Shown piece after piece: positions 9,628-58,462 of a stretch of DNA of 64,000 nucleotides. The position numbers and the translations under genes were made by a program. The notes beneath the pieces are model-generated. The model worked only from the letters and a program-made list of their open reading frames with translations, was not told the origin of the DNA and did no database searches. Source of the DNA: an uncultured bacterium (GTDB lineage Bacteria > Hydrogenedentota > Hydrogenedentia > Hydrogenedentales > JAEUWI01); the NCBI GenBank assembly GCA_963977445.1, contig CAXBPH010000003.1, positions 9,964 through 73,963 on the forward strand. Reading direction: 5' to 3'. Numbering within the stretch: the stretch's first letter is position 1; each line of letters begins with the position of its first letter.

Positions 9628-10974
9628 GTGGATATCAAGCACAAAGCTACCCGGATCGAACTATTTAACTTTAGAACGGTCCAGATGCGAGCCTTCCATA
9701 TGTCGTGGTTTGCTTTCTTTCTTTGCTTTTTTGCCTGGTTCGGCATTGCTCCCATGATGGTTATCGTGCGAGACGAATTGTCCCTCACGAAGGCACAGAT
9801 CGGAAACACGATCATCGCGTCGGTCGCCATCACCATCATTGCGCGCCTGTTTATCGGGTGGCTCTGTGATCGCATCGGCCCCCGTTTAACCTACACGTGG
9901 TTACTCGTTTTCGCGTCGATTCCAGTTATGGGTATCGGGCTGGCCCAGAGTTACGAAACCTTTCTTCTCTTTCGTCTGGGAATTGGTGCCATCGGTGCCT
10001 CATTCGTTATTACCCAATACCACACATCCGTCATGTTTGCACCCAACTGTGTGGGAACGGCCAATGCCACCACGGCCGGCTGGGGCAATCTTGGCGGTGG
10101 TGTTACGCAGATGGTCATGCCCCTGCTTTTCAGCACCCTGCTGGTCATCGGCCTGAGTGAATTCTGGGCGTGGCGAACGGCCATGGTTATCGCTGGCGTA
10201 GTTTGCATGCTTACGGGTGTCGCCTATTATTTTGTTACGCAGGATACGCCGGACGGCAACTTCAAGGACCTCCGTGAACGGGGCCTGATGAGCTCGGCGA
10301 AGGACAACAAAGGTGCCTTTCTGGAGGCGGCGAAAGACTATCGCGTCTGGGCTTTGTTTTTTGTCTATGGCGCGTGTTTCGGCGTAGAACTCACCATCAA
10401 CAACGTCATCGCCCTCTACTACACGGATTACTTCGGCATGGGTATGAAGGCCGCCGGTGCGTTGGCTGCCTGCTTCGGTCTCATGAACTTATTTGCCCGC
10501 ACCCTGGGTGGCTTCTTTGGCGACAAACTTGGCATCAAGTATGGCCTGAAAGGACGGGTCCACTGGCTCACCGTCGCCCTCTTCATCGAAGGTCTTGCCC
10601 TCATGCTCTTCTCGCAGATGACCTTCCTCCCCCTGGCCCTGGGCACCATGATCATTTTCAGCCTCTTCGTGCAGATGTCGGAAGGCGCAACCTTCTCAGT
10701 CGTTCCCTTCATCAACAAACGGGCCCTTGGCGCGGTAGCCGGCATTGTCGGTGCCGGTGGAAACTTTGGTGCCGTATGCGCGGGCTTCCTCTTCAAGTCC
10801 GGTGCCATCACCTGGCCCCAGGCGCTACTTATTCTGGGCGTCATGGTAACCCTCTGTTCTGGGCTTACCGTGTTCGTCCGTTTCAGCGAAGCCGACGAAC
10901 GGGCTGCCGAAGCCGCAAATGAACTCGCTCGGGACATGGAAGACGGGGCTGTTGCGGAACCCGCATCCGCCTAG
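9628..10974 (+). CDS. narK: MFS nitrate/nitrite transporter (NarK/NRT2 family)
   Basis: About 12 TM segments; nitrate signatures 'GTANATTAGWGNLGGG' and 'GIVGAGGNFGA'; nitrate cluster context. Confidence 0.9.
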   Translation: MDIKHKATRIELFNFRTVQMRAFHMSWFAFFLCFFAWFGIAPMMVIVRDELSLTKAQIGNTIIASVAITIIARLFIGWLCDRIGPRLTYTWLLVFASIPVMGIGLAQSYETFLLFRLGIGAIGASFVITQYHTSVMFAPNCVGTANATTAGWGNLGGGVTQMVMPLLFSTLLVIGLSEFWAWRTAMVIAGVVCMLTGVAYYFVTQDTPDGNFKDLRERGLMSSAKDNKGAFLEAAKDYRVWALFFVYGACFGVELTINNVIALYYTDYFGMGMKAAGALAACFGLMNLFARTLGGFFGDKLGIKYGLKGRVHWLTVALFIEGLALMLFSQMTFLPLALGTMIIFSLFVQMSEGATFSVVPFINKRALGAVAGIVGAGGNFGAVCAGFLFKSGAITWPQALLILGVMVTLCSGLTVFVRFSEADERAAEAANELARDMEDGAVAEPASA

Positions 10975-42798: not shown

Positions 42799-43608
42799 TT
42801 AGACGGCGTCGGAAACGATTTTCTTTCCGGTAACCGGGCAAACTTTGGCTTCACCTTCGGAAGAAGCGGCTTTGGCCTTGTCACACTCAGACTTGGCTTT
42901 GTCGCAGGTCTTGGCTTCGCCTTCGGAAGAAGCAGCCTTGGCCTTGTCACACTCAGCTTTCGCTTTGTCACAAGTCTTGGCTTCACCTTCGGAAGAAGCA
43001 GCCTTGGCCTTGTCACAAGCGGACTTGGGGCATTCGCCTTCAGAGGAAGCAGCCTTCGCTTTGTCACAGGTCTTGGCTTCACCTTCAGAAGAAGCGGCTT
43101 TGGCCTTGTCACACTCAGACGTGGCTTTGTCACAGGTCTTGGCTTCGCCTTCGGAAGAAGCAGCCTTGGCCTTGTCACAGGTCTTGGCTTCACCTTCGGA
43201 AGAAGCGGCCTTCGCTTTATCGCACTGCTTCGCTTCACCTTCGGAGGAAGCAGCCTTGGCTACCTTCGTCTTGCAGCAGCTGGACGCTTCACCTTCAGAG
43301 GAAGCCGCCAACGCCTTATCGAAGGTCGCCTGCCGGTCGGCGATCAGCTTGGCTTTCTTTTCGCATGGCTGAAAGGCATCTTCATTCGCTGCGGAAACCG
43401 TCTGCATGCCGAAGAAGGAGGCAACACTGTTCTTAGCACTCGTGATGGCGCAGGAACCTGATGCTCCGTTGTTCGCAACAACGCCAGCAGTCGCCACGCC
43501 GGATACGACGACCATAGCAGCAACGAAGGATGCCCATTTGCCTTTGTTACGTTTCGGTGCTTGAGCCGTTTCTTCGGTCACAAGCTCTTCCTGATGTTCT
43601 TCGTTCAT
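42799..43608 (-). CDS. Membrane-anchored Cys/Ala/Lys/Glu-rich repeat protein
   Basis: One N-terminal hydrophobic helix, nine AASSEGE-containing units, 16 Cys; GGAG RBS before ATG 43608; own terminator. Confidence 0.75.
   Translation of the reverse strand: MNEEHQEELVTEETAQAPKRNKGKWASFVAAMVVVSGVATAGVVANNGASGSCAITSAKNSVASFFGMQTVSAANEDAFQPCEKKAKLIADRQATFDKALAASSEGEASSCCKTKVAKAASSEGEAKQCDKAKAASSEGEAKTCDKAKAASSEGEAKTCDKATSECDKAKAASSEGEAKTCDKAKAASSEGECPKSACDKAKAASSEGEAKTCDKAKAECDKAKAASSEGEAKTCDKAKSECDKAKAASSEGEAKVCPVTGKKIVSDAV
42846..43305 (-). repeat. Coding tandem repeat (45-bp units with 21-bp interspersed units)
   Basis: Recurrent ...ttggcttcaccttcggaagaagcagccttggccttgtcaca..., varying mainly at codon third positions. 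Confidence 0.85.
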
Positions 43609-44127
43609 TGAATATTGCTCCACAAGTGTTTAAATAAGTTACCCATGCAATCTACACGATAAACATAGATTCAAAATTGACCCGATTTCATGTCAAAACC
43701 TGGAATTATTCGTAGGGTTCAGCATAACAAAAACTCCGCCACTTCGCAATCCTGTCGAAGCGCGCATTTCCACGAACCCGAAAGAAATGAAAACAACCTA
43801 ACCATCTCAATTTAAAGGCGTTACATAAAGTGTGTCTTTAACCCACAATCGCTGGAACGGCTACGTCGTCAGCTCACCAAGTTTCAATGCAGTGCAATTT
43901 GTCCGAAAAATCGCTGAAAACAGGTTGGTTGGCCGAGAACATTCATGAAATAACTGCCCCATAGGCCATGCCCCCACGAAGCCCCGACTCAACCGGTATT
44001 TTGCCGACTTCCGACGATGTTGCCGATGTTTTTGAGGAAGTGGTGGCGGAGTCTTGTGCGGGTGTCTTGGTGGCTTGGGTCGTTGTCGGTCATCGTCGGC
44101 TGCCTTTTAAGATTGCCGAAAAGGGGC

Positions 44128-44331
44128 CTACTCTGCGGGATGCGCAGCCGTGATCGCGACGGGCTCCGAGGCCTCGCGGCTCTTGCGCATGAGTTCCTGG
44201 TCGATCATGCCAAGTTCGGCGGCCAAACCGGCTGCGGCTACGGACAGGCAGGTTTCTTCCACTTCCGCCGCGTGGCGCATCCATTCGGGAAAAGGAAACG
44301 CATCACTTGTGCTATTCATATCCATGGTCAT
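44128..44331 (-). CDS. Small hypothetical protein coupled to the GNAT gene (possibly truncated)
   Basis: ATGA overlap with the upstream GNAT stop; 67 aa. Confidence 0.45.
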   Translation of the reverse strand: MTMDMNSTSDAFPFPEWMRHAAEVEETCLSVAAAGLAAELGMIDQELMRKSREASEPVAITAAHPAE

Positions 44332-44894
44332 AGGTGCCTTTCCAGAATTCTCTCTGCATTGTCGCGCGAAAGTTCAAAGTACGTCAAGTTTTCGAAATCC
44401 ACGTCAGGGCCCAACGGTGTCATCCAACACGCCCCTCCGTAGAAGGGTACGGACTGCGGCAAGGCATGTAGGCCCACTCGACCTCCAAAGCCTTCGTCCC
44501 AGCTTTGCCGGACGGCGCGCTCGAACAGGTGGGGACCAATCAGGCCGTATTTTCGCGTTTGCCCGATACCTGGAATGGTCCAGTTCCAAGGGGCGACTTC
44601 CAGGAAGTCTATATATACCAGCGGCTTGCCATGATCTTCGCCGAGTTGGGAGAAATGTGTCCCAGACTTGGTCAGCATGGCACCCTGCCATTCGTCGTCA
44701 CAGACCACGGCGAATCCAGATGCAGGAACCAGGCGCAGGTGCTGCGCCTTGGCCCGCCAGTTCCAGTTGAGGCTCTGGGGTCGCTCGGAATAGGGAAGAC
44801 CCGCGCGGGCTATTTCGAGAAGGATGCGGGAGCGTTCTGGAGTCCACACCGATTCCAGTGTCAGCAGGTCTTCAGGCGCGACGAGGAGGGCCAA
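44328..44894 (-). CDS. GNAT-fold acetyltransferase-like protein, probably 5'-truncated
   Basis: 'LVYIDFLEVAPWN...GLIGPHLFERAVRQS...GRVGLHALPQSVPFY'; TTG start without RBS and an in-frame stop just upstream. Confidence 0.6.
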   Translation of the reverse strand: MALLVAPEDLLTLESVWTPERSRILLEIARAGLPYSERPQSLNWNWRAKAQHLRLVPASGFAVVCDDEWQGAMLTKSGTHFSQLGEDHGKPLVYIDFLEVAPWNWTIPGIGQTRKYGLIGPHLFERAVRQSWDEGFGGRVGLHALPQSVPFYGGACWMTPLGPDVDFENLTYFELSRDNAERILERHL

Positions 44895-44913
44895 GCTGTT
44901 CTGCCTTCACGGC

Positions 44914-45297
44914 CTACTCACCCGTTGCGATGGCACTGGCGAAAGCGATTCCGCTCGAATAGCTAATACTCACATGCCAATCTAAGATACCGAGCTCATC
45001 AGAAAACTTTGCCACGTCATGATTTAGCCTTACATATGGAGCCCCGTTCTTCCCCCGAAGAATTTCTATTCCATGCCACGTTATTTTTCCAGAAAACCCA
45101 GTACCAAGAGCCTTTGCGATGGCCTCCTTTGCGGCGTATCTACCTGCATAGTAACGATAGTGGGCTGGGGGAGGGTCGGCGGCTTCTCGCTCGTCTATTG
45201 AGCAAAAGCAATTGACCCAGCTATTCGTACCTGAGTCAATTTCATTTCTTATACGTTGAATTCTTTCAATATCGATTCCGTGACCAATGATTCGCAT
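44914..45297 (-). CDS. acpS: AcpS-type 4'-phosphopantetheinyl transferase
   Basis: 'IIGHGIDIERIQRI', 'AGRYAAKEAIAKALGTG', 'GAPYV', 'VSISYS'. Confidence 0.88.
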   Translation of the reverse strand: MRIIGHGIDIERIQRIRNEIDSGTNSWVNCFCSIDEREAADPPPAHYRYYAGRYAAKEAIAKALGTGFSGKITWHGIEILRGKNGAPYVRLNHDVAKFSDELGILDWHVSISYSSGIAFASAIATGE

Positions 45298-45305
45298 GCA
45301 TCCCC

Positions 45306-47189
45306 CTATTTTATTTCTCGAACTACGATATCTCTCTTGTCAAGATCCAGGTCAACAGTTCCGCCTCCACGAGATTTCAACTCTCTCCAAACTTTGAAGC
45401 CCTGCAGGATAGCGCGTTCCCATTCTCCCGTTGTGCATGCTGACACCTCAAGATGAAGGACGGTATTCTTTATCATTCGTAACAATTCACTACTGACCGA
45501 CAATTTACCCTCTAGGAAGTTGTAGTCACGAGCGTAGGCAAAAATCATTGCCGATAGTGCCTCTTCCGTGACAATCGCCCTTGCACCATCTTCCACTTCG
45601 TCAACTTTCGGATCACTCTTTCGCTTCGCTGTGAACATTTTCCTGACGAGTGGAGACCAACCTAGAACCGCAGCGAAAGACAAATGGATTACATCGTGGA
45701 GTCCGTAACCATCGTTCTCGTAAGCGTTGTCAGTCAAGTCATCACCAAACTGCTGACCCTTGTACATCACCCGTATTTTTGGGTTGTTGAATTCGTCATG
45801 GTATGTGCTGAAATCGAGTGAAAAACTACGTGGAAATTGTTCATTTTCGGGATATCCTGCATCGAACGGAGTTCGCGAAGGTAACGTGCCCCACCGTTCA
45901 TCACATTTCGCCAAGTTAAGCTCGGCGATCTCCTTCAGATCGAGATTAAACTTCGTGGCGACGTTTGCCACATACCACAGCAAGTCTCCGAGTTCCTCGC
46001 TTAAGCGGTCCTTAAACAATTTATGCGTGTCACCGTCCCGAAGATATTTCTTGTATTCACTCAACAATTCACCGGATTCGCTTGCGAGGCCCAACAGAGG
46101 AATCGTTAGCGAAGACTCGTCCACACCGGGATTTTGATCTGTCCCGGCAACTTTCTCTTGGTATTTGCCCATATCCATGGCTCTTGTCTCCAGGTTCACC
46201 CCCGTACTCGATCGATTTTCTTCGTTTGAGCTGGTACGGCTGATTAATTCGTTTATGCCCCACTTGGGTGGGTACCAATAGTCGATTGGTTCTAAAATAG
46301 GCTTCAGCTTCTGCTTTATGCGACTTCGCCCTGATTTTCCGACGAATTCTGGATGTACAACTCGCGCGTACTTGTCTACTTCACAAAACAGGTTTTGGCA
46401 ATCAATCAATTGAAGCGGCCTTCCCCATAAGTCGGAAAAATCTATGCCCAGTCGATTAAATTCCTCATCCTGCCTCTCGGTCACCCACCGGATTATTTGT
46501 GCAGTATCCTTCTTTCCCGGGTTTAGAAAGCACTTCTGGATTCCATCGAGTGCTCCGGGGCCTGCGACCACAAAGTCCATTTCAGAGAAGTTAATGATGG
46601 TGCTGTAGTTCAAATCGGTAACATACTGATAGGCTAGAAAGTTGCCTATCCCAGGTGATGACCGCATTGATTCGAACGCCTCTTCCATGGACTCCGAATC
46701 AGCAATTCGTTTCGGTAGCTCCGAAGACATCATGTATTCAAGTAACTTAAGATGGTTCTGGTGTTTGAATGTTAGCGAAAATTTTCGGACGGAGGGCATT
46801 ATATAGGCTGCGGAATAGATCCGCTGGCCTCGCGTCATCGCCTGACTTAAGACACGGTCATATGCCTTGTATGAGTAATCGGCGTATGTGAGATGGCCAA
46901 GCTCATTCTCAAGTAGTTTCCATGTATCGATGCGATTGAAAAGTTTGAATAGAATTATGCGAAAAAACACTTCAGCTGGATGAGTCGGGAGGTCTTCGTT
47001 GTATATTACGTTCCTAATGAGATATTGGCTCACTCTGTCAGAGGCTCTGTAGGCGTTCGTGAATTTGTGGTTTTGAAGCACAGCGTCATCCGTCCACGGA
47101 AGAGGGCGCTTACTTATTCGTCGAAAGAAGATTCTCTGTCGCTCGGCGGCGAATTTCCAATACGTATCGTATACAGGAGTAGTTTTCAT
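45306..47189 (-). CDS. aGPT-Pplase1 / 5-hmdU DNA kinase-like helical domain fused to MazG-like NTP pyrophosphatase and MazG C-terminal domain
   Basis: N-terminal 'YWKFAAERQRIF...PWTDDAVLQNHKFTNAYRASDRVSQYLI', HhH-like 'PGIGNFLAYQYVTDLNYS', 'GPGALDG', 'DCQNLFCEVDKY'; C-terminal 'LGLASESGELLSEYKK...EELGDLLWYVANVA', 'GDDLTDNAY..DGY..HDVIH', 'DEVEDGARA...EE'. Confidence 0.8.
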   Translation of the reverse strand: MKTTPVYDTYWKFAAERQRIFFRRISKRPLPWTDDAVLQNHKFTNAYRASDRVSQYLIRNVIYNEDLPTHPAEVFFRIILFKLFNRIDTWKLLENELGHLTYADYSYKAYDRVLSQAMTRGQRIYSAAYIMPSVRKFSLTFKHQNHLKLLEYMMSSELPKRIADSESMEEAFESMRSSPGIGNFLAYQYVTDLNYSTIINFSEMDFVVAGPGALDGIQKCFLNPGKKDTAQIIRWVTERQDEEFNRLGIDFSDLWGRPLQLIDCQNLFCEVDKYARVVHPEFVGKSGRSRIKQKLKPILEPIDYWYPPKWGINELISRTSSNEENRSSTGVNLETRAMDMGKYQEKVAGTDQNPGVDESSLTIPLLGLASESGELLSEYKKYLRDGDTHKLFKDRLSEELGDLLWYVANVATKFNLDLKEIAELNLAKCDERWGTLPSRTPFDAGYPENEQFPRSFSLDFSTYHDEFNNPKIRVMYKGQQFGDDLTDNAYENDGYGLHDVIHLSFAAVLGWSPLVRKMFTAKRKSDPKVDEVEDGARAIVTEEALSAMIFAYARDYNFLEGKLSVSSELLRMIKNTVLHLEVSACTTGEWERAILQGFKVWRELKSRGGGTVDLDLDKRDIVVREIK

Positions 47190-47237
47190 ATTAACCGGCC
47201 GAAAGTATACGAGTACAGTGGAGTCATTTTTGTCTTT

Positions 47238-48062
47238 CTAAAAATCGTCATGAATAGGCTCGGAAACTGTGCTCGTCACAGATTTGCAAAGTATTTTGTT
47301 AGAGCGCGTGATCAAGTCACGTGCATTGCGTACCCCCCAAGGAAATTGTTTTGAATCCTTAATTCTGGCTGGGCCTTTATCAATTTCGGCATGTGTGGAG
47401 ACACAGGTGAGCGAACCGACGGTTAGGCCAGCTCGCTCTGCCACAAACGCCTGAAGTTGCCCCAAACCGATTAGATTGCCAAGGCACCGAGATATGTACG
47501 TGTGGTTACGGTACATTGCTGTAAGCATCAAGCCCTTGTTTGGATGACATTTAAAGCTCAAAAAACTGAGGCATTGTCCCCCCCATCGACTACGCCCATC
47601 CTCCAAGGGATCGTAAACCGCTAGCTCATATGCCGACTTGAACTTCTGACCACCATTCTCGCGTTCTTGTAGCTTACCGATCAGCTGTTCTAGTGGATTG
47701 TATGTCTTGCCGAGCCTAGTCTGATGCCTGGTCATTCGCTCAAAGTACCTACCCCAGCGCCGGGTCTTCGTCAGTCTATCGAACGCTTCATGGTATTTCT
47801 CGTAGAACACCGGAGCCCCGTGCTGATTGTAGAGTGATTGGGGAAAAATCGTGTTACAGACCGTGGATATGGGGTAGCAATCGTACTTTCGTAGAAAATC
47901 GTCTACCTCTGAAATGATTTCATTGTCAGTTGAATCGAACGATACGGGATTTTCTACATCAACAATAACGTTGTATCCCTCATCATTGTGCTTCATGATC
48001 TCCATTGCAGCCGCTACCCACGCTCGCGCACAACTCTTCTGTGTCGGGATGGCGATGTACAT
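47238..48062 (-). CDS. Divergent thymidylate-synthase-fold protein
   Basis: 'GGQCLSFLSF' (catalytic Cys position), 'LMLTAMYRNH', 'LGNLIGL', 'GSLTCVSTHAEI' in TS motif order. Confidence 0.72.
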   Translation of the reverse strand: MYIAIPTQKSCARAWVAAAMEIMKHNDEGYNVIVDVENPVSFDSTDNEIISEVDDFLRKYDCYPISTVCNTIFPQSLYNQHGAPVFYEKYHEAFDRLTKTRRWGRYFERMTRHQTRLGKTYNPLEQLIGKLQERENGGQKFKSAYELAVYDPLEDGRSRWGGQCLSFLSFKCHPNKGLMLTAMYRNHTYISRCLGNLIGLGQLQAFVAERAGLTVGSLTCVSTHAEIDKGPARIKDSKQFPWGVRNARDLITRSNKILCKSVTSTVSEPIHDDF

Positions 48063-48074
48063 AGAAAGGTCTCC

Positions 48075-48722
48075 CTAATGCGTAATAAATGCGGAAAAGA
48101 TTCGCGACCCGAGATAACGTTTGCTCAACCAGGCGTAGCCATGAAGGCCCCAGGATTCACCCCAACTGTTTCTGATAGCGATATACTTTTCGCTGTTTTT
48201 CGTAGCTGTTGCGACGGCAACAACAGCGTGTCGTCGAACCGGGTCGATAGGCTCAGTTGAATCAACGATTCCAACGTTGTCCGGGGTATAGAACGCATCT
48301 GAGAACGACATCGCGAGGACGACGGGCTTGTCGGTTTGGATGCAGTCCCAAACGGCGTCAAATGTGGCGGTTAAGGCGCTAGTATGGCATTGGAAAAGTT
48401 GCCCTACGTTGTTGGGAGGCTTCCAGTGCGAAATTGGGCTTGGCAATGCCTTGAGGTAGGGCCAGGCGAGTTCGTTCGGTTGCCCGTCCCCAGTTAATGC
48501 AGAGCATACCCCCGGAATGGAAACACCCAAATCTGGAGAGCTTCTCTCCCACTTTATCGCGTAGTAGTATAGGTACTCACACGACAAGGGTTGCCAATTC
48601 CTCTCCAGTGCGGCGGAATGTGCGTCGCTCGTGGCGAACGCCAGGCATGTCGGGCGCGCTCCTTGATCGCGAGCGCTGCCAAAATATGGTCGTAGGTCGT
48701 GACGGATAATCATCGAACTCAT
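48075..48722 (-). CDS. Papain-like (C1) cysteine peptidase, no signal peptide
   Basis: 'RDQGARPTCLAFA' (Gln, Cys), 'RHAVVAV' (His), 'IRNSWGESWGLHGYAW' (Asn). Confidence 0.88.
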   Translation of the reverse strand: MSSMIIRHDLRPYFGSARDQGARPTCLAFATSDAHSAALERNWQPLSCEYLYYYAIKWERSSPDLGVSIPGVCSALTGDGQPNELAWPYLKALPSPISHWKPPNNVGQLFQCHTSALTATFDAVWDCIQTDKPVVLAMSFSDAFYTPDNVGIVDSTEPIDPVRRHAVVAVATATKNSEKYIAIRNSWGESWGLHGYAWLSKRYLGSRIFSAFITH

Positions 48723-49732
48723 GGGCGACTCAACATTGCTTGGCGTTGAGCTGGCAGGAGGCCGGTTTGTAGTGGTCCTGTCAAGTTTACATCAAATTCG
48801 AGCGACTGTAGAGATTCATCATCTGAGAGCCATGGTCGCTGTTCACGAAGATTCACGTGACCGAGTGCCGACTGCTCCGGTTCAGCCACGATCTTACGTT
48901 CGACAATACTACCGATTGCATTTTCAGTCGAGCGGGCCTCTCGGATGTCCTCAACTATTTTGAGGCCGACTTTGGAGAGACTGTCAAACGACCACATGTA
49001 CCCTGATGAAGCGTGTTCGATCAGCTCGAGAATCACGATGTCGTGCGCGCTTCCTTCAATTAGGAGCCTTTGATCGCCCATGCCAAGCACCCATATATCC
49101 GCATACCATGATTCTGGGGTGTGCTGTTTGGTGAGCTGCTGCTTGATAGATTTTGGTTGGGTTTTGAGCAGGGAGTCTCGTACTGATTTCGAAATCGCAT
49201 TGTGCTTGAGGAGCGCATGACAAGTCGCCGCATAGCTTGACCCCATCCGTAAGGCCAATTGGTAGACTATTTTCGGAGACGTTAGGTCTGAGCTCGCCCA
49301 CCCTTGTTGACCCATGTGGTGCGTGATTAGCCATTTCGGTGTAAGCAGTTCGGAGGCAAACGCATTTGCCTGCAGTTCTATGAGATCAAGAGCTGCCCCG
49401 CTCTCAAACGGAGTTCGGTTTAGCCTGGATTCGTCATCTAGACTAGACGAGTGCCCCATGACCGCGTGACCCAATTCGTGTGCTGCCGTGAAGCGCTGTA
49501 CGGAAAGGGGGCGTTGTGTGGTCAACAGAACTCCAGATCCATTTTCTTCCAAATAGCATCCGAGCAGCCCCTTCATCGGTTGGAACATGACAGGTATGTC
49601 GAGAGCTGCGAGAAGTCCAAACACATCGATGCGTCCCACCCCACTCTTTACCTTTTTTTTGACACCATGGCTAGCATGTAATCGGTTAGCAGCAAGAGCC
49701 GCCTCGAGTATAGCCTTACGAACGTCTGGCAT
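48719..49732 (-). CDS. ImmA/IrrE-family Zn metallopeptidase with a C-terminal chagasin (I42)-like domain
   Basis: 'QRFTAAHELGH', 'ELQANAFASELL'; C-terminal 'LELIEHASSGYMW...IGS...LREQRPW'. Confidence 0.82.
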   Translation of the reverse strand: MPDVRKAILEAALAANRLHASHGVKKKVKSGVGRIDVFGLLAALDIPVMFQPMKGLLGCYLEENGSGVLLTTQRPLSVQRFTAAHELGHAVMGHSSSLDDESRLNRTPFESGAALDLIELQANAFASELLTPKWLITHHMGQQGWASSDLTSPKIVYQLALRMGSSYAATCHALLKHNAISKSVRDSLLKTQPKSIKQQLTKQHTPESWYADIWVLGMGDQRLLIEGSAHDIVILELIEHASSGYMWSFDSLSKVGLKIVEDIREARSTENAIGSIVERKIVAEPEQSALGHVNLREQRPWLSDDESLQSLEFDVNLTGPLQTGLLPAQRQAMLSRP

Positions 49733-49735
49733 AGG

Positions 49736-50116
49736 TCAGCCCCCTTTTTGCGCTTTCCTCGATTTCAAGAATTCTGCGAATCTGGCGAGTTCGCTGCGAT
49801 CTTCCGGGGCCAATTCAGATACCTGCCGTGCCAGATGAGCGACTTCCTTGTCAACTGGATGCGTGTCAGCGGTTTCACCGGTAAAAAAGTTCAGAGACCT
49901 CCCGTAGAGTTCGGCTAATTTCTTGAGTTCAAACACTTCAACTTTCCTCAGCCCTGCTTCCATCAAAGATAGCGCGGAACGAGAAGTACCTACTTTCGTG
50001 GCTATTTCGTTCTGGGAGAATCCAACATACTCTCGGGCTTCACGTAGCCGGTCACCAAGTACCTTTCTATCGCTATCACCTTCAACTTTTTTATTGTTGG
50101 GAGCTCTACTACTCAT
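49736..50116 (-). CDS. XRE-family HTH transcriptional regulator
   Basis: 'LGDRLREAREYVGFSQNEIATKVGTSRSALSLMEAGLRKV'; ATGA overlap with the upstream gene. Confidence 0.9.
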   Translation of the reverse strand: MSSRAPNNKKVEGDSDRKVLGDRLREAREYVGFSQNEIATKVGTSRSALSLMEAGLRKVEVFELKKLAELYGRSLNFFTGETADTHPVDKEVAHLARQVSELAPEDRSELARFAEFLKSRKAQKGG

Positions 50117-50433
50117 TTGCTTCCCTTTCTTTTTTCCTCTTCTTGGCACAATTTATCTATACGCAGCATCATATCGTCAATTGCTTCATCAACACTTTGA
50201 TAGCCGCCTTTTCGTATAGTCTTGTCTGGAGGTAGTCGAAAACCAACGATTGGCTCGATGGCTAACAAAGTGCTTACGACGGCAAAGGAGTCCAAAAGTG
50301 GCTCCCAAACCTTGCGCAACAGAGCCCCCTCATCCACAATCTCGTCAAGCTTGTCAGTCAAAACTGCCCGAATTTCGCAAGAAGTCAAATGAACATCTTC
50401 GTCGATTTGAAACGCTGTGGATGTGTTTGCCAT
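50113..50433 (-). CDS. Acyl-carrier-protein-like small acidic protein
   Basis: 106 aa; 'LLDSFAVVSTLLAIEPIVGFRLP...SVDEAIDDM' resembles the ACP DS(Ppant)-helix II-loop-helix IV pattern; AGGAG RBS; PPTase in the same operon. Confidence 0.6.
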   Translation of the reverse strand: MANTSTAFQIDEDVHLTSCEIRAVLTDKLDEIVDEGALLRKVWEPLLDSFAVVSTLLAIEPIVGFRLPPDKTIRKGGYQSVDEAIDDMMLRIDKLCQEEEKRKGSK

Positions 50434-50458
50434 ACCGAATCTCCTGTGCTACTTGGTT

Positions 50459-50487
50459 AGGATACCAAAATTCAGTTGGAAAATCAA
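50459..50487 (-). promoter_or_regulatory. Candidate sigma-70 promoter of the island operon
   Basis: Minus strand TTGATT-17bp-TATCCT with TG extension, 25 bp before the ACP-like start. Confidence 0.55.
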
Positions 50488-50500
50488 ACACAAAATATCA

Positions 50501-50523
50501 ATATGTTAGATTTTCTAACATAT
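50501..50523. promoter_or_regulatory. Perfect palindrome, candidate XRE operator
   Basis: ATATGTTAGA-TTT-TCTAACATAT. Confidence 0.6.
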
Positions 50524-50525
50524 GG

Positions 50526-50607
50526 TATAGCCCAGGGTTTTGCTTGTTCGCGCTTGGGGCGTGAACTTGCTGCGCCCTGGGCTATAGTGTGTCACCCCGT
50601 TGGGGCT
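50526..50607. repeat. REP-like palindromic element (AGCCCAGGG...CCCTGGGCT family)
   Basis: TATAGCCCAGGG (50526-37) / CCCTGGGCTATA (50575-86) plus CCCCGTTGGGG hairpin; same motif family as 63691-64000. Confidence 0.75.
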
Positions 50608-50850
50608 ATTCAGATCGCCCTGTACGGATTCGCCGAAGAATGACACTTCGCCCGAAGTGGGCGCCAGCAACCCCATGAGCACCTTGATGGTCGTGCTCTT
50701 ACCCGCGCCATTGGGCCCGAGAAGGCCGAAGGCGGCCCCACGCTTTATTTGGAGATTGAGGCCGTGGACACCATCTCCGTGTTCGTAGGTTTTTACGAGT
50801 TCTGAGATTTCGACCACCGACTCGGTCTTCACCGGGGCCTGTTTATCCAT
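50608..50850 (-). pseudogene. 5' fragment of an ABC transporter ATP-binding gene
   Basis: 'FGLLGPNGAGKSTTIKVLMGLLAPTSGEV' Walker A; frame then runs into the REP with no Q-loop, signature or Walker B. Confidence 0.8.
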
Positions 50851-51001
50851 AACCTGCACGAAAACAACTCCCCTTGTTCTTCGCTGCAGAACCTGCGTGC
50901 AGCGGGAAAACTGCCAACGAAATAGCCCGATACGCTATAGTACAAGACATTAATCTATCTGACAATCCCCAAAGATTAACCGGAAAGCCCAATCAAAATT
51001 C

Positions 51002-52330
51002 ATGGCCGAAGATCTATTTGAAAATGCCGCCGCTGAGCGGATGCGGAAGGAAGCCCCGCTGGCCCGCCGTATCGCCCCCCGCACCCTCGATGACTTTGTG
51101 GGGCAGGAGCATATCCTCGGGCATGGCAAACTCTTGCGTCGCGCCATCGAAGCCGATCGCATCACCTCCCTCCTCCTTTATGGTCCCCCGGGCACGGGCA
51201 AGACCGCGCTGGCGCGTATTATCGCCATGCGGACCAAATCGGCCTTTGAACCCTTAAATGCGGTGACGTCGGGCGTGAAAGAGCTGCGGGAACTCCTGGC
51301 CCAGGCCAAGCAACGGCGCATCCACCAACAGAAGCGCACCATCGTTTTCGTGGACGAAATTCACCGATTCAATAAGGCCCAGCAGGACGCCCTCCTCCCC
51401 GATGTGGAGAATGGCAACATCACCATGATCGGTGCCACCACGGAGAACCCCTTCTTCTCCGTCGTCGCGCCTCTCCTCTCCCGTTCCCAGATTTTTGAAT
51501 TCAAACGTCACACGGAAGAAGCCCTCGTCGGCTTACTGCGCCGCGCCCTCACACATCCCGAGCTGGGGATGGACCCCGAGACCATCACGGTAGACGACGA
51601 CGCCTTCGCTCATATCGCGCGCTATGCCGAAGGGGATGTGCGCCGTTCCCTCAATGCCTTGGAAGTGGCCCTGCTTACCACGCCGGTGGTCGATGAGAAG
51701 ATTCACATCACCGTGGAAGAAGCCCGGGAATCCATCCAGCGCAAACTCCTCCACTACGATGGCACGGGCGATGGCCACTATGACGCGGCCTCGGCTTTTA
51801 TCAAATCCATGCGGGGGAGCAATCCCGATTCGGCCCTCTATTGGATGGCCCGCATGCTGGAAGCCGGTGAAACGCCGCGCTTTGTGGCGCGACGCATCTG
51901 CATCGCCGCGTCGGAAGATGTGGGCAATGCCGACCCCATGGCGCTGGTGCTGGCGAACGCCGCCTTCCAGACCTGTGAGTTCATCGGCATGCCCGAAGCG
52001 CGCATCATGCTCGCCCAGGCCGTGACCTACATCGCCGCCGCCCCCAAGAGCAATGCGTCCTACGCGGCCATCGACGCCGCCATCGCGGCCGTGCGGGAAG
52101 AAAAAACCACCGAAATTCCCAAACACCTCCAGGATGCCCACTACAAGGGGGCCAAACGACTGGGTCACGGGGCCAACTATCAGTATGCCCACGATTTTGA
52201 AGACAACTACGTCACCCAGGACTACGGCATCCCCCGGGGCACCTTCTATCAGCCCACGAAAAATGGCAAGGAAGCCGAAATAAAGGCCTGGATGGATGAA
52301 CTCGACGCCCGGGACCGGGGAGAGAACTAG
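51002..52330 (+). CDS. rarA: Replication-associated recombination protein A (RarA/MgsA)
   Basis: 'GPPGTGKT', '[13 protein letters not shown]', 'GATTENP', '[10 protein letters not shown]', 'ASEDVGNAD'. Confidence 0.95.
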
Positions 52331-57271: not shown

Positions 57272-58462
57272 CTACCGAAGGCGAAACTCACCAATCAATC
57301 CAGGCCGTCGCGCAAGCAAACTCTCTAAGTGACTATCTGCCCACATTTCGATGCGAAGTGCCGAATCTGATTGGTTGTGGTTCTCGATTATTTGAATAGC
57401 ATCTGTGCTGAATCTGCCGGACGTCGCAATAATGTGAACATCAACTCGCGGCGGCTCCCAGAGTTTCATTTGCTCTCTCAAAGTCGCAATTTCCTTAGCA
57501 CCGACGCTTTTCGACAGCCAATGCTTGCATTGAATAATCACTCGCAGGCGAAACGTTCCGCCTAGTTTGTCGAGAAACACTCTTTGGCACGAAAGATCCC
57601 GTCCTCTGTCTGACGCGTTCGTCTTAGTAAGCCACTCCGCATTTTCGTAACCTTCGGTTTGCGATATCAGATTGAAAACCAATCTCTCGAAATCATCCTC
57701 ATCGATGGCTTCCCAGTTTAGCTTGGTTGCGATTTCTCCGACGGGCCTAGCCTTAACTAACTCACCCAAATCGTCGACGGCCACCGGTAATGGGTCGGAA
57801 CTACCGTATAAAATCTCCGTCATCCCCGCGTCGACAGCTGGCCAATCGTGCTTTATTATGTCTCGAAGATCGCCAATCATACCGTAATGAAGGTGCCTTT
57901 TCAGATCACCCCATCTCGGAGGACGCTTGGCACTACTTCCCAAGATAGTATCGATTCTGGAAACACTGGAGACCAATACTTCCCAGTCGTCACCGTCGAC
58001 AGAACCGTTAGCCTCGAGTTTGCTCGGATAGTCTGTGCGAAGACGCGCCAGCGCTAAATTGGCGATACGTATCTCTTCAAGTAATGCGTGACGAAATACC
58101 GTTCTCCGTGACCTATTCAACCGATAACGGTACTCTTTGAGGTCTTTCTCTGGCGAGAATATGTGCTCATCTATTATTACGGCACTCTCAAAGTCGCCAA
58201 TCTCCATGGCGTCAAATCTGAATTGTCCGATTTCATTTAGCTCTAAGAGTGAATCTGGCATTGTCCATCCATCAATCTTAGGAAGAGCTTCACGTACTTG
58301 ACGATAATCTCGGCAGCAATCATCGTACACTCCGTCGGTCATGTCCCCGAACGAAACACTTTCAGGAATCATCGATTTGATCTTTTCCCACAAAGCTTCT
58401 AACTTCACAAGATTGGCTTCGGTTGCTTCAAATTGCTTCAATGCATCGTTCAATGAGCTCAT
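57272..58462 (-). CDS. Mrr-like (PD-(D/E)xK) restriction endonuclease domain protein with a long helical N-terminus
   Basis: 'DFERLVFNL', 'DRGRDL', 'IIQCKHW', 'ATSGRFS'; more AT-rich than flanks. Confidence 0.8.
   Translation of the reverse strand: MSSLNDALKQFEATEANLVKLEALWEKIKSMIPESVSFGDMTDGVYDDCCRDYRQVREALPKIDGWTMPDSLLELNEIGQFRFDAMEIGDFESAVIIDEHIFSPEKDLKEYRYRLNRSRRTVFRHALLEEIRIANLALARLRTDYPSKLEANGSVDGDDWEVLVSSVSRIDTILGSSAKRPPRWGDLKRHLHYGMIGDLRDIIKHDWPAVDAGMTEILYGSSDPLPVAVDDLGELVKARPVGEIATKLNWEAIDEDDFERLVFNLISQTEGYENAEWLTKTNASDRGRDLSCQRVFLDKLGGTFRLRVIIQCKHWLSKSVGAKEIATLREQMKLWEPPRVDVHIIATSGRFSTDAIQIIENHNQSDSALRIEMWADSHLESLLARRPGLIGEFRLR

Follow-up and report, generated by a model that had tools for sequence, protein, structure and literature searches.

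A mobile bacterial cassette that joins a carrier protein to a divergent thymidylate-synthase-fold protein and is probably directed at pyrimidines

Background

We studied a window of 64,000 nucleotides (positions 9,964 to 73,963 of contig CAXBPH010000003.1, GenBank assembly GCA_963977445.1, from an uncultured bacterium of the Hydrogenedentales) and in it a cassette of seven genes at positions 44914-50523, called g1 to g7 in the order of transcription. They are predicted to encode a carrier protein (g1), an XRE repressor (g2), a zinc peptidase (g3), a papain-family protease (g4), a thymidylate-synthase-fold protein (g5, called TSL below), a fusion of the PF18723 domain with MazG (g6) and a phosphopantetheinyl transferase (PPTase, g7). 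The closest validated relative of this cassette is DS-4 ("NTTI", DefensePredictor), whose gene set is given as a kinase of deoxynucleoside monophosphates (dNMP), PF18723, a thymidylate synthase (TS), TIR and Nmad2, and which in a single table row lowers the plating of lambda by 0.93 log, with smaller plaques (PMC13092281). The text and legend of Fig. 6F in the same paper also name aGPT-Pplase, MazG, MazG-C, dUTPase, HTH and uracil-DNA glycosylase (UDG) domains in systems which are predicted and unvalidated (PMC13092281).

Two further groups of described systems bear on the cassette. The genes capH and capP are reported to be divergent from the operon they control in all the cases found, and the GAF domain of CapP to bind single-stranded DNA, the trigger needing a groove between peptidase and GAF (bioRxiv 10.1101/2022.04.27.489752, 10.64898/2026.05.16.725639). 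In the phage pathways of thymidine hypermodification, whose protein homologues are stated to occur in cellular organisms (PMC5889632), the kinase acting on 5-hydroxymethyldeoxyuridine (5-hmdU) is described as a P-loop protein, and thiols as trapping an exocyclic methylene in a related transferase (PMC8989533). The amino acid:DNA transferase (aGPT-Pplase2/ADDT) is presented as having a helix-hairpin-helix (HhH)-like fold and a catalytic Cys, preceded at distances of four and three residues by a Glu-Thr that binds metal. Iyer et al. in 2013 and Burroughs et al. in 2015 are said to have defined the PF18722, PF18723 and Nmad families and to have noted cellular operons of TS, aGPT-Pplase1 and MazG.

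We report here that the cassette is a real, recently acquired and widely shared unit, which most likely serves the bacterium against phages. That it is a regulated conflict system directed at pyrimidines we consider probable; the complete route, in which an inducible anti-phage cassette would place an altered uracil as a mark in replicating DNA and afterwards act on it, is put forward tentatively.

The cassette and its spread

The minus strand of 44914-50523 holds seven intact open reading frames (ORFs), all co-oriented, with ATGA overlaps at 50113-50116 and 48719-48722 and gaps of 3, 12, 48 and 8 bp at the other junctions. A preliminary description of the locus had given this layout correctly, and it was also right that the cassette is more AT-rich than its surroundings: when the stretch was compared with the whole genome (7.1 Mb, 1020 non-overlapping windows of 5.6 kb), its GC content was 0.484 against 0.564 for the genome, and a value equally low was found in 2 of the 1020 windows. 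Each of the seven genes is single-copy in the assembly. The genes anchoring the region, those of a repeat protein (42799-43623) and of a RarA-like ATPase (at 51002), are 7.4 kb apart in the window, while in all four congeners compared the same two genes are about 0.35 to 3.5 kb apart and the cassette is absent. Searched with g5, related genomes gave one match in 60, and congeners none in 8. The low GC, the empty site in the congeners and this rare occurrence mean that the cassette was inserted recently, at a site which varies.

We then have two sets of relatives: a GTDB set retrieved with g6 (80 of 111 matches) and a metagenome set retrieved with g5 (80 of 110). The exact seven-gene order is found in five of the GTDB loci (L001, L003, L017, L020 and L024, TSL being split in L017). 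The carrier gene is accompanied by XRE, IrrE and TSL genes in all the 46 GTDB loci which bear it (46/80 overall) and in all the 39 carrier-bearing metagenome loci, where the papain gene is also always present. Over the whole metagenome set the papain gene occurs in 74 of 80 loci, the chagasin domain in 50 (all with papain) and MazG_C in 56; five of the six loci without papain are cut by contig ends, and the sixth perhaps also. There are two subtypes, one with papain and chagasin, which is the window's own, and one without either. The titles of the GTDB records name Planctomycetota, Cyanobacteria, Bacteroidota, Acidobacteria, Chloroflexota, Verrucomicrobia and others, and 23 plasmid records match, 13 of them conjugative and one archaeal; the three which were read have the same gene order. 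In one locus (L062) the unit carrier-XRE-IrrE-TSL has been moved and inverted as a block. All gene families are under purifying selection, with a median dN/dS of 0.06-0.23 over pairs which are not independent. The preliminary description had proposed gene-neighbourhood co-occurrence as a check, and the outcome is one conserved mobile unit, whose core is kept in 46/46 and 39/39 carrier loci. Its supposition that the locus stands outside the named defence systems also holds, no core gene having a PADLOC model.

The partner genes in the 80 GTDB loci include a dCTP-deaminase-like gene (27 loci, and 15 of the 80 metagenome loci), a canonical TS (23), TIR (19), Nmad2 (19) and DUF1643 (13), and a thymidylate-kinase domain recurs as well. 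Judged by their families, all the nucleotide-handling partners point to deoxyuridine.

The thymidylate-synthase-fold protein and the carrier

The gene g5 (47238..48062, minus strand) encodes a divergent TS-fold protein of 274 amino acids (aa). It has no match in Pfam and a sequence search against the PDB was also empty, but its predicted structure (pLDDT 92) is matched to the TS fold by Foldseek (E 2e-8), and the best structural match is 9iqc (Z 17.1, root mean square deviation (rmsd) 3.1, 198 residues aligned), followed by MilA (Z 15.3) and ThyA (Z 14.7). Since this best match is, according to its PDB title, a flavin-dependent dCMP hydroxylase, TS folds can work without folate. C164, Y106 and N196 are invariant in both 42-row alignments of TSL, and in the canonical TS family the counterparts of C164 and N196 are C159 and N190, which we take to be the catalytic Cys and the uracil-selecting Asn. 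The canonical Glu and the R-S-x-D and H-x-Y motifs, presumably functional in TS, are missing: TSL has Q75, R185-N-H-T188 and E226-x-D228 at those columns, whereas the canonical TS of sister loci keeps Glu, S-x-D and H-x-Y without exception. R185 is kept in the papain subtype alone. The reading of g5 as a TS-like protein therefore stands as far as the fold and the retained Cys and Asn are concerned; the analogy with a canonical dUMP hydroxymethylase does not, as the Glu, RSxD and HxY are lost.

At an E-value of 1e-10 or better, 1270 clusters (50% identity) match the TSL profile, and no match was found in 50,697 phage records or in a scan of viral contigs. A canonical TS stands beside TSL in 8 of the 46 carrier-bearing loci. 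The host has ThyX, and ThyA was not found in its genome (94% complete); a dominant-negative action of TSL on host ThyA, which we had considered, is therefore rejected for this host. We also observed a natural fusion of TSL with the PF18723 domain, P0103 (624 aa).

The first gene of the cassette, g1 (50113..50433, minus strand; 106 aa), likewise has no Pfam match, and its identification as a protein resembling acyl carrier proteins (ACPs) comes from profile comparison with solved ACPs (E 7e-9). Ser49, in a D-S motif, is the sole invariant column across 34 relatives (11-40% identity), and D48-S49 is invariant in 30 papain-type rows. The last gene, g7 (44914..45297, minus strand; 127 aa), encodes an AcpS-type PPTase (PF01648 (ACPS), E 3e-16; TIGR00516 above cut-off). 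With an invariant Ser in a D-S motif, an ACP profile match and a linked ACPS domain, g1 and g7 have the marks of a carrier/AcpS pair, and this part of the preliminary description is borne out. AcpS accompanies the carrier in 26 of the 46 GTDB and 14 of the 39 metagenome carrier-bearing loci. The host genome has a second, unlinked PPTase and further carrier domains elsewhere. Neither a ligase nor an acyltransferase nor a ketosynthase recurs in the loci. Phage SP-15 was considered as a precedent for carrier-dependent chemistry on uracil; its "acyl carrier protein reductase" is a label without a function, and we do not use it as support.

The switch

Upstream of g1 there is a palindrome of 17 bp at 50504..50520 (operator 1), an exact match to its motif and a candidate site for the XRE repressor; a second copy with one mismatch lies at 50474..50490 (operator 2), 41 bp before the first start codon. 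Operator 1 is the unique exact match in the 7.1-Mb genome. Of 43 papain-type loci, 39 have the palindrome 5' of the carrier gene with at most one mismatch, and of 1557 control windows none has it, a comparison which is partly circular because the motifs were derived from the same loci on which they were counted; at least two copies, with at most two mismatches, occur in 23 of the 43. The subtype without papain has a different palindrome, in 33 of 41 loci. In a held-out test on three plasmid loci, one of the two papain-type loci had an exact site and the other a degenerate one, and the single non-papain locus had none. As the site changes with the repressor subtype, it is good indirect evidence for a putative autorepression. 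The preliminary description had placed the operon under one promoter and palindrome. The palindrome is there, in two copies, but no promoter was found in the leader (50430-50600) by a scan for the sigma-70 consensus, which occurs at chance level (4 sites in 7.5 kb against 7.2 expected).

The repressor gene g2 (49736..50116, minus strand) encodes 126 aa when read from the ATG that lies within the ATGA overlap (PF01381, E 3e-11; PADLOC capH, E 3.5e-15). Its longest ORF begins at 50149, and the ATG in the overlap fits the starts of relatives in the alignment and is the most likely start. Next to it g3 (48719..49732, minus strand; 337 aa) encodes a peptidase of the IrrE/ImmA type (Peptidase_M78, E 9e-11; capP, E 4.7e-16), whose HExxH...E residues H85, E86, H89 and E119 are invariant in 33 rows. 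With a conserved operator in front, these two matches agree with the preliminary description, in which the genes form an HTH and IrrE-type pair like CapH/CapP.

The C-terminal part of g3 resembles chagasin (I42), with a Pfam match below the cut-off (E 6e-5, 23.7 against 27.2 bits). G244-Y245-x-W247, G274 and P300-W301 are present in 47 of 47 papain-type proteins, the three loop motifs being nearly invariant overall, and the GYxW and RPW patterns are in none of 41 proteins which come from the papain-free subtype. We assume that the three loops correspond to the inhibitor loops of chagasin. No GAF domain was matched in g3 by Pfam, and the solved structures of IrrE and CapP align with its peptidase part only. 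The gene g4 (48075..48722, minus strand; 215 aa) encodes a papain-family (C1) cysteine protease (PF00112 (Peptidase_C1), E 2e-11) with Q20, C26, H165 and N185 invariant in 32 of 32 rows. Thus g4 and the C-terminal domain of g3 are, by their conserved residues, a predicted pair of papain protease and chagasin-type inhibitor. Such a pair had been foreseen, and the invariance of the catalytic residues and the confinement of the loop motifs to the papain subtype confirm it at this level. A control by DNA damage had been foreseen too, and this stays conjectural: where CapP has its GAF domain binding single-stranded DNA, g3 has the chagasin-like domain.

The PF18723-MazG fusion and its exchange with a glycosylase

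The protein of g6 (45306..47189, minus strand; 627 aa; model pLDDT 93) consists of PF18723 (4-282; HMUDK_hel, 2.5e-114), MazG (about 336-435; 5e-6) and MazG_C (440-625; 8e-70). PF18723 is a helical, HhH-like domain of the aGPT-Pplase1 type. The structures nearest to it are all middling (Z 7 to 10): a queuine-salvage glycosylase (Z 9.9), the amino-acid:DNA transferase gp46 of a phage (Z 9.6, rmsd 4.3, 229 residues aligned, a likeness at the level of the fold) and HhH glycosylases. C269 is invariant in 42 of 42 relatives, and Q265-N266 stand four and three residues before it. A Foldseek search with full-length g6 gave nothing at E 0.001 or better, the fold searches barely covering MazG_C. The middle domain has the features of a MazG-type NTP pyrophosphatase, with an all-alpha fold and acidic metal ligands (E371, E378 and D402 invariant in 21 of 21 rows), and the preliminary description had identified it rightly. 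Its other proposal, a 5-hmdU DNA kinase, is rejected: the three domains cover g6 fully, there is no P-loop kinase domain and no Pfam match to PF18724, and all that is left of the likeness is the helical domain PF18723. Those relatives which have a kinase carry a domain of the thymidylate-kinase family, fused or adjacent to PF18723. PF18723 relatives are found in 494 phage records, with about 22-37% identity to the phage proteins among the 30 of 494 listed.

In the 42 papain-type loci whose sequence reaches 2.5 kb or more downstream of TSL, PF18723 is present in 25 and a gene of the UDG superfamily in 17; no locus has both and none has neither. On a tree of 55 TSL rows the label PF18723/UDG changes three times, which may be one gain and two losses, so that the independent events are few. 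The UDG partner (L123:5990-6637 and relatives) forms a tight family whose nearest solved structure by sequence is weak (E 0.016); its motifs, we believe, recall SMUG-type enzymes. All genes are co-oriented in 12 of the 28 PF18723 loci with MazG, the window included.

Neighbouring genes

The neighbours of the cassette in the window are housekeeping genes. As the preliminary description had it, no integrase or phage structural family was found among 28 further long ORFs of the window scanned against Pfam (ORFs of at least 180 aa and up to 3 kb), and a search of 43000-51500 against Rfam gave zero matches. At the upstream edge of the cassette there is an imperfect inverted repeat (50526-50586, arms of 28 bp), unique in the genome, which terminates a truncated ABC-ATPase ORF (50515-50859, minus strand; 114 aa). 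Neither is present at the congeners' site, and the two are possibly a scar of the insertion. Downstream, 44328-44894 (minus strand) encodes a protein of 188 aa whose family is unnamed and for which the ESM Atlas (0.96-0.98) gives a GNAT-like lead, and has an ATGA overlap with an ORF of 67 aa (44128-44331, minus strand). This pair lies within the inserted stretch, has a GC content of 58-60% and may be a small toxin-antitoxin-like pair. We rejected it as part of the cassette: both ORFs are in 0/80 GTDB loci, and the longer one in 0/80 metagenome loci. The anchor protein of 42799-43623 (minus strand; 274 aa) is hydrophobic in an N-terminal segment, contains many short repeats with Cys and is without a Pfam family; it is kept in four congeners with a varying number of repeats. 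Farther away, in a patch of lower GC between two DUF2920/S9 hydrolase paralogues, 57272-58462 (minus strand) encodes a protein with an Mrr_cat restriction-endonuclease domain.

Genes of TIR, Nmad2, SLOG, Argonaute, Lamassu and restriction-modification (RM) type adjoin the relatives of the cassette. A long Argonaute and a Cas4-like nuclease stand directly 3' of the cassette on a Leptolyngbya contig (L018:10033-13061). The DUF1643 gene adjoins the cassette in cyanobacterial loci (L004-L012, L025, L035, L036), usually by AcpS and on the opposite strand. PF18723 loci often have ThsB-type TIR, Nmad2 and SLOG/STALD genes (L030, L032, L067, L071, L077, L078), and some combine TIR, Nmad2 or SLOG genes with the carrier cassette, which means that DS-4-like and carrier-type modules mix.

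Proposed mechanism and alternatives

We propose that an XRE dimer bound to the two 17-bp operators, which conservation points out, would keep the operon low, and that upon a signal of stress or infection the zinc peptidase, whose catalytic residues are in place, would cut XRE as IrrE and CapP do. In this subtype the chagasin-like domain of g3 would also restrain the papain protease and its action on some target, as suggested by its loops and by the co-occurrence of the two. AcpS would convert the carrier to its holo form at the invariant Ser, and TSL, given its fold and residues, could attack C6 of a uracil nucleotide through Cys164. The phosphopantetheine arm of the carrier might then be the donor or acceptor of the group at C5, in place of the lost folate-side residues; this is the weakest step. 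MazG may trim the altered triphosphate or the pool of dUTP and dTTP. A base-flipping enzyme, PF18723 here and UDG in other copies as their interchange suggests, would excise the altered base in DNA or attack it covalently. Such an attack would harm phage replication and probably the cell as well. The orientation towards phages is argued by analogy, because DS-4, with PF18723 and TS, reduced the plating of lambda by 0.93 log (PMC13092281), and that towards deoxyuridine by the dCTP-deaminase-like gene, the canonical TS, the thymidylate-kinase domain and the TSL-PF18723 fusion of the relatives. What the preliminary description had called an inducible nucleotide/DNA-modification module is thus retained for its switch parts, its operator and its deoxyuridine-linked enzymes, but not for the hydroxymethylase and kinase activities it named.

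Several observations weigh against this proposal. The activities assigned to the seven genes are all predicted. AcpS is missing from 20 of 46 and 25 of 39 carrier-bearing loci, and no acyl-loading enzyme is among the cassette genes. In the non-papain subtype TSL has in addition lost the Arg which binds phosphate (6 of 42 rows have R), so that dUMP fits badly as a substrate; since a dNMP kinase and a deaminase are missing from the window, activation of the product would fall to host enzymes. When PF18723 was compared by profile with a phage ADDT protein, no match resulted. The effect of DS-4 is small, concerns one phage in the table rows, and could be explained by its TIR gene (PMC13092281). 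In 36 loci hand-chosen for long flanks and diversity, with ORFs called mechanically and E 1e-20 or better, PADLOC matches are modestly enriched (13 of 125 flanking ORFs, in 11 of the 36 loci, against 2 of 64 controls) and some of them are generic; in the flanks of the window no defence gene is nearer than the Mrr-like one at 57272. Finally, all 22 UDG loci with MazG have both of these genes on the opposite strand, and 16 of 28 PF18723 loci have MazG and/or the glycosylase-fold gene there; genes so placed outside the operator-controlled unit would fit the role of an antidote equally well.

This last point leads to an alternative which we hold to be unlikely, namely that the induced arm of carrier and TSL (and papain) is an abortive toxin, while MazG and the glycosylase-fold enzyme are a clean-up of the dut/ung kind for its leaky product. 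The opposite strand in all 22 UDG loci would be accounted for, as would the movement and inversion of carrier-XRE-IrrE-TSL as a block in L062 and the retention of one glycosylase-fold partner in 42 of 42 complete papain-type loci. However, all genes are co-oriented in the 12 PF18723 loci to which the window belongs, and the relatives' fusions of PF18723, with a nucleotide kinase or with TSL, suggest one pathway and no antidote.

There is a comparably low chance that the cassette attacks phages with uracil or 5-hydroxymethyluracil in their DNA, its parts being harmless to a host with normal DNA. MazG would then destroy (hydroxymethyl-)dUTP, UDG or PF18723 would attack the unusual base, and TSL with the holo-carrier would trap dUMP or its hydroxymethyl form, or poison a phage enzyme of the TS family. 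This would explain the interchange of UDG and PF18723 and the frequent transcription of MazG and the glycosylase-fold gene separately from the switch, and a TS decoy would spare a host with ThyX and no ThyA found. It also agrees with the PF18723 relatives of the 494 phage records, many of whose genera and families are, we believe, known for thymidine hypermodification. On the other hand, tight repression would be needless, and the dCTP-deaminase-like gene (27/80, 15/80) and, in several loci, the thymidylate kinase would make deoxyuridine nucleotides instead of removing them. The DNA of lambda is ordinary and unmodified, which also counts against this alternative. It was on lambda that DS-4, in the table of that paper, acted (PMC13092281).

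Still less probable is a regulatory carrier, whose holo form would serve the peptidase, the repressor or the papain protease as a ligand or decoy, with TSL using folate or another small cofactor (giving e.g. 5-hmdUMP). The carrier gene is indeed the first of the operon and overlaps the XRE start, and the missing recurrence of a ligase, acyltransferase or ketosynthase would be expected; but the canonical TS of sister loci retains Glu, Asp and His-x-Tyr positions which TSL lacks, and a canonical TS beside TSL in 8 of 46 loci makes it unlikely that TSL does the same job. A role outside defence (self-DNA modification or an addiction module for a mobile element, or a stress-induced nucleotide-salvage operon), for which the 23 plasmids, the housekeeping neighbours and the lack of a nuclease in the cassette could be cited, is very improbable given the phage protection reported for the related DS-4 (PMC13092281) and the TIR, Nmad2, SLOG, Argonaute, Lamassu and RM genes adjoining the relatives.

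Returning to the proposal of a marked uracil, we regard its chemical core as doubtful, namely that a folate-free TS-fold enzyme with a dedicated phosphopantetheinylated carrier modifies C5 of uracil with an acyl-type group or, by way of the thiol, with the carrier itself. A carrier feeding a TS-fold enzyme would be new nucleobase chemistry. If true, fatty-acid-style carrier chemistry would be joined to nucleobase modification, and clade-1 aGPT-Pplases would have a first function; the whole would be a new bacterial DNA base or DNA-protein adduct, made on demand and serving as a mark against phages, with interchangeable glycosylase-fold enzymes as its readers and a switch of two proteases as its gate. 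Whatever its chemistry, the family is large (the 1270 TSL clusters), extends over many phyla and plasmids, and has a core without a PADLOC model. The operator of 17 bp, the invariant Ser of the carrier, the chagasin loops tied to papain and the PF18723/UDG swap are new here. The swap is a direct lead on the role of clade-1 aGPT-Pplases, a question left by the phage hypermodification papers in the parts considered here, and the conserved operator and catalytic residues make a clean reporter or mutant series possible.

Comparison with known systems

Like DS-4, the cassette has a PF18723 domain beside a TS-fold gene, and the g6 query retrieves loci of the DS-4 set with about 55-62% identity in that domain. 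Unlike the cassette, DS-4 as listed in its table has no carrier, PPTase, XRE/IrrE pair, papain protease or MazG, and conversely the kinase, TIR and Nmad2 are absent from the seven genes and the two downstream ORFs. Compared by text and legend, the systems of DefensePredictor Fig. 6F are not said to contain a carrier, PPTase, chagasin or papain. The word "undescribed", used in the preliminary description, applies to the architecture of carrier, PPTase and papain and not to the theme of TS, PF18723 and MazG, which the DefensePredictor text names. In the full-text literature, where few subscription papers were covered, we found no description of the carrier-XRE-IrrE-TSL cassette or of its carrier/PPTase and papain/chagasin arms.

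With CapH/CapP and DdrO/IrrE, as with ImmR/ImmA, the cassette shares an XRE repressor and an HExxH...E zinc peptidase at the head of a putative defence operon. It differs from CapH/CapP in that the C-terminal GAF of the peptidase is replaced by a chagasin-like domain, and in that the regulators are inside the operon, co-oriented and overlapping, whereas capH/capP are divergent in the cases which those reports describe. What it has in common with phage thymidine hypermodification is the TS fold, an NTP pyrophosphatase and a domain of HhH-like kind, akin to clade-1 aGPT-Pplases and in structure to gp46; unlike these pathways the cassette has neither a P-loop DNA kinase nor a clade-2 transferase, and they, as described (PMC5889632, PMC8989533, PMC11472151, PMC13458397), have no carrier protein. 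Judged by gene content and motifs, the cassette falls outside DS-4, strict CapH/CapP, ThyA-type enzymes and 5-HMUDK. By analogy, it would work like a relative of DS-4 switched in the manner of CapH/CapP and built from the phage toolkit of thymidine modification.

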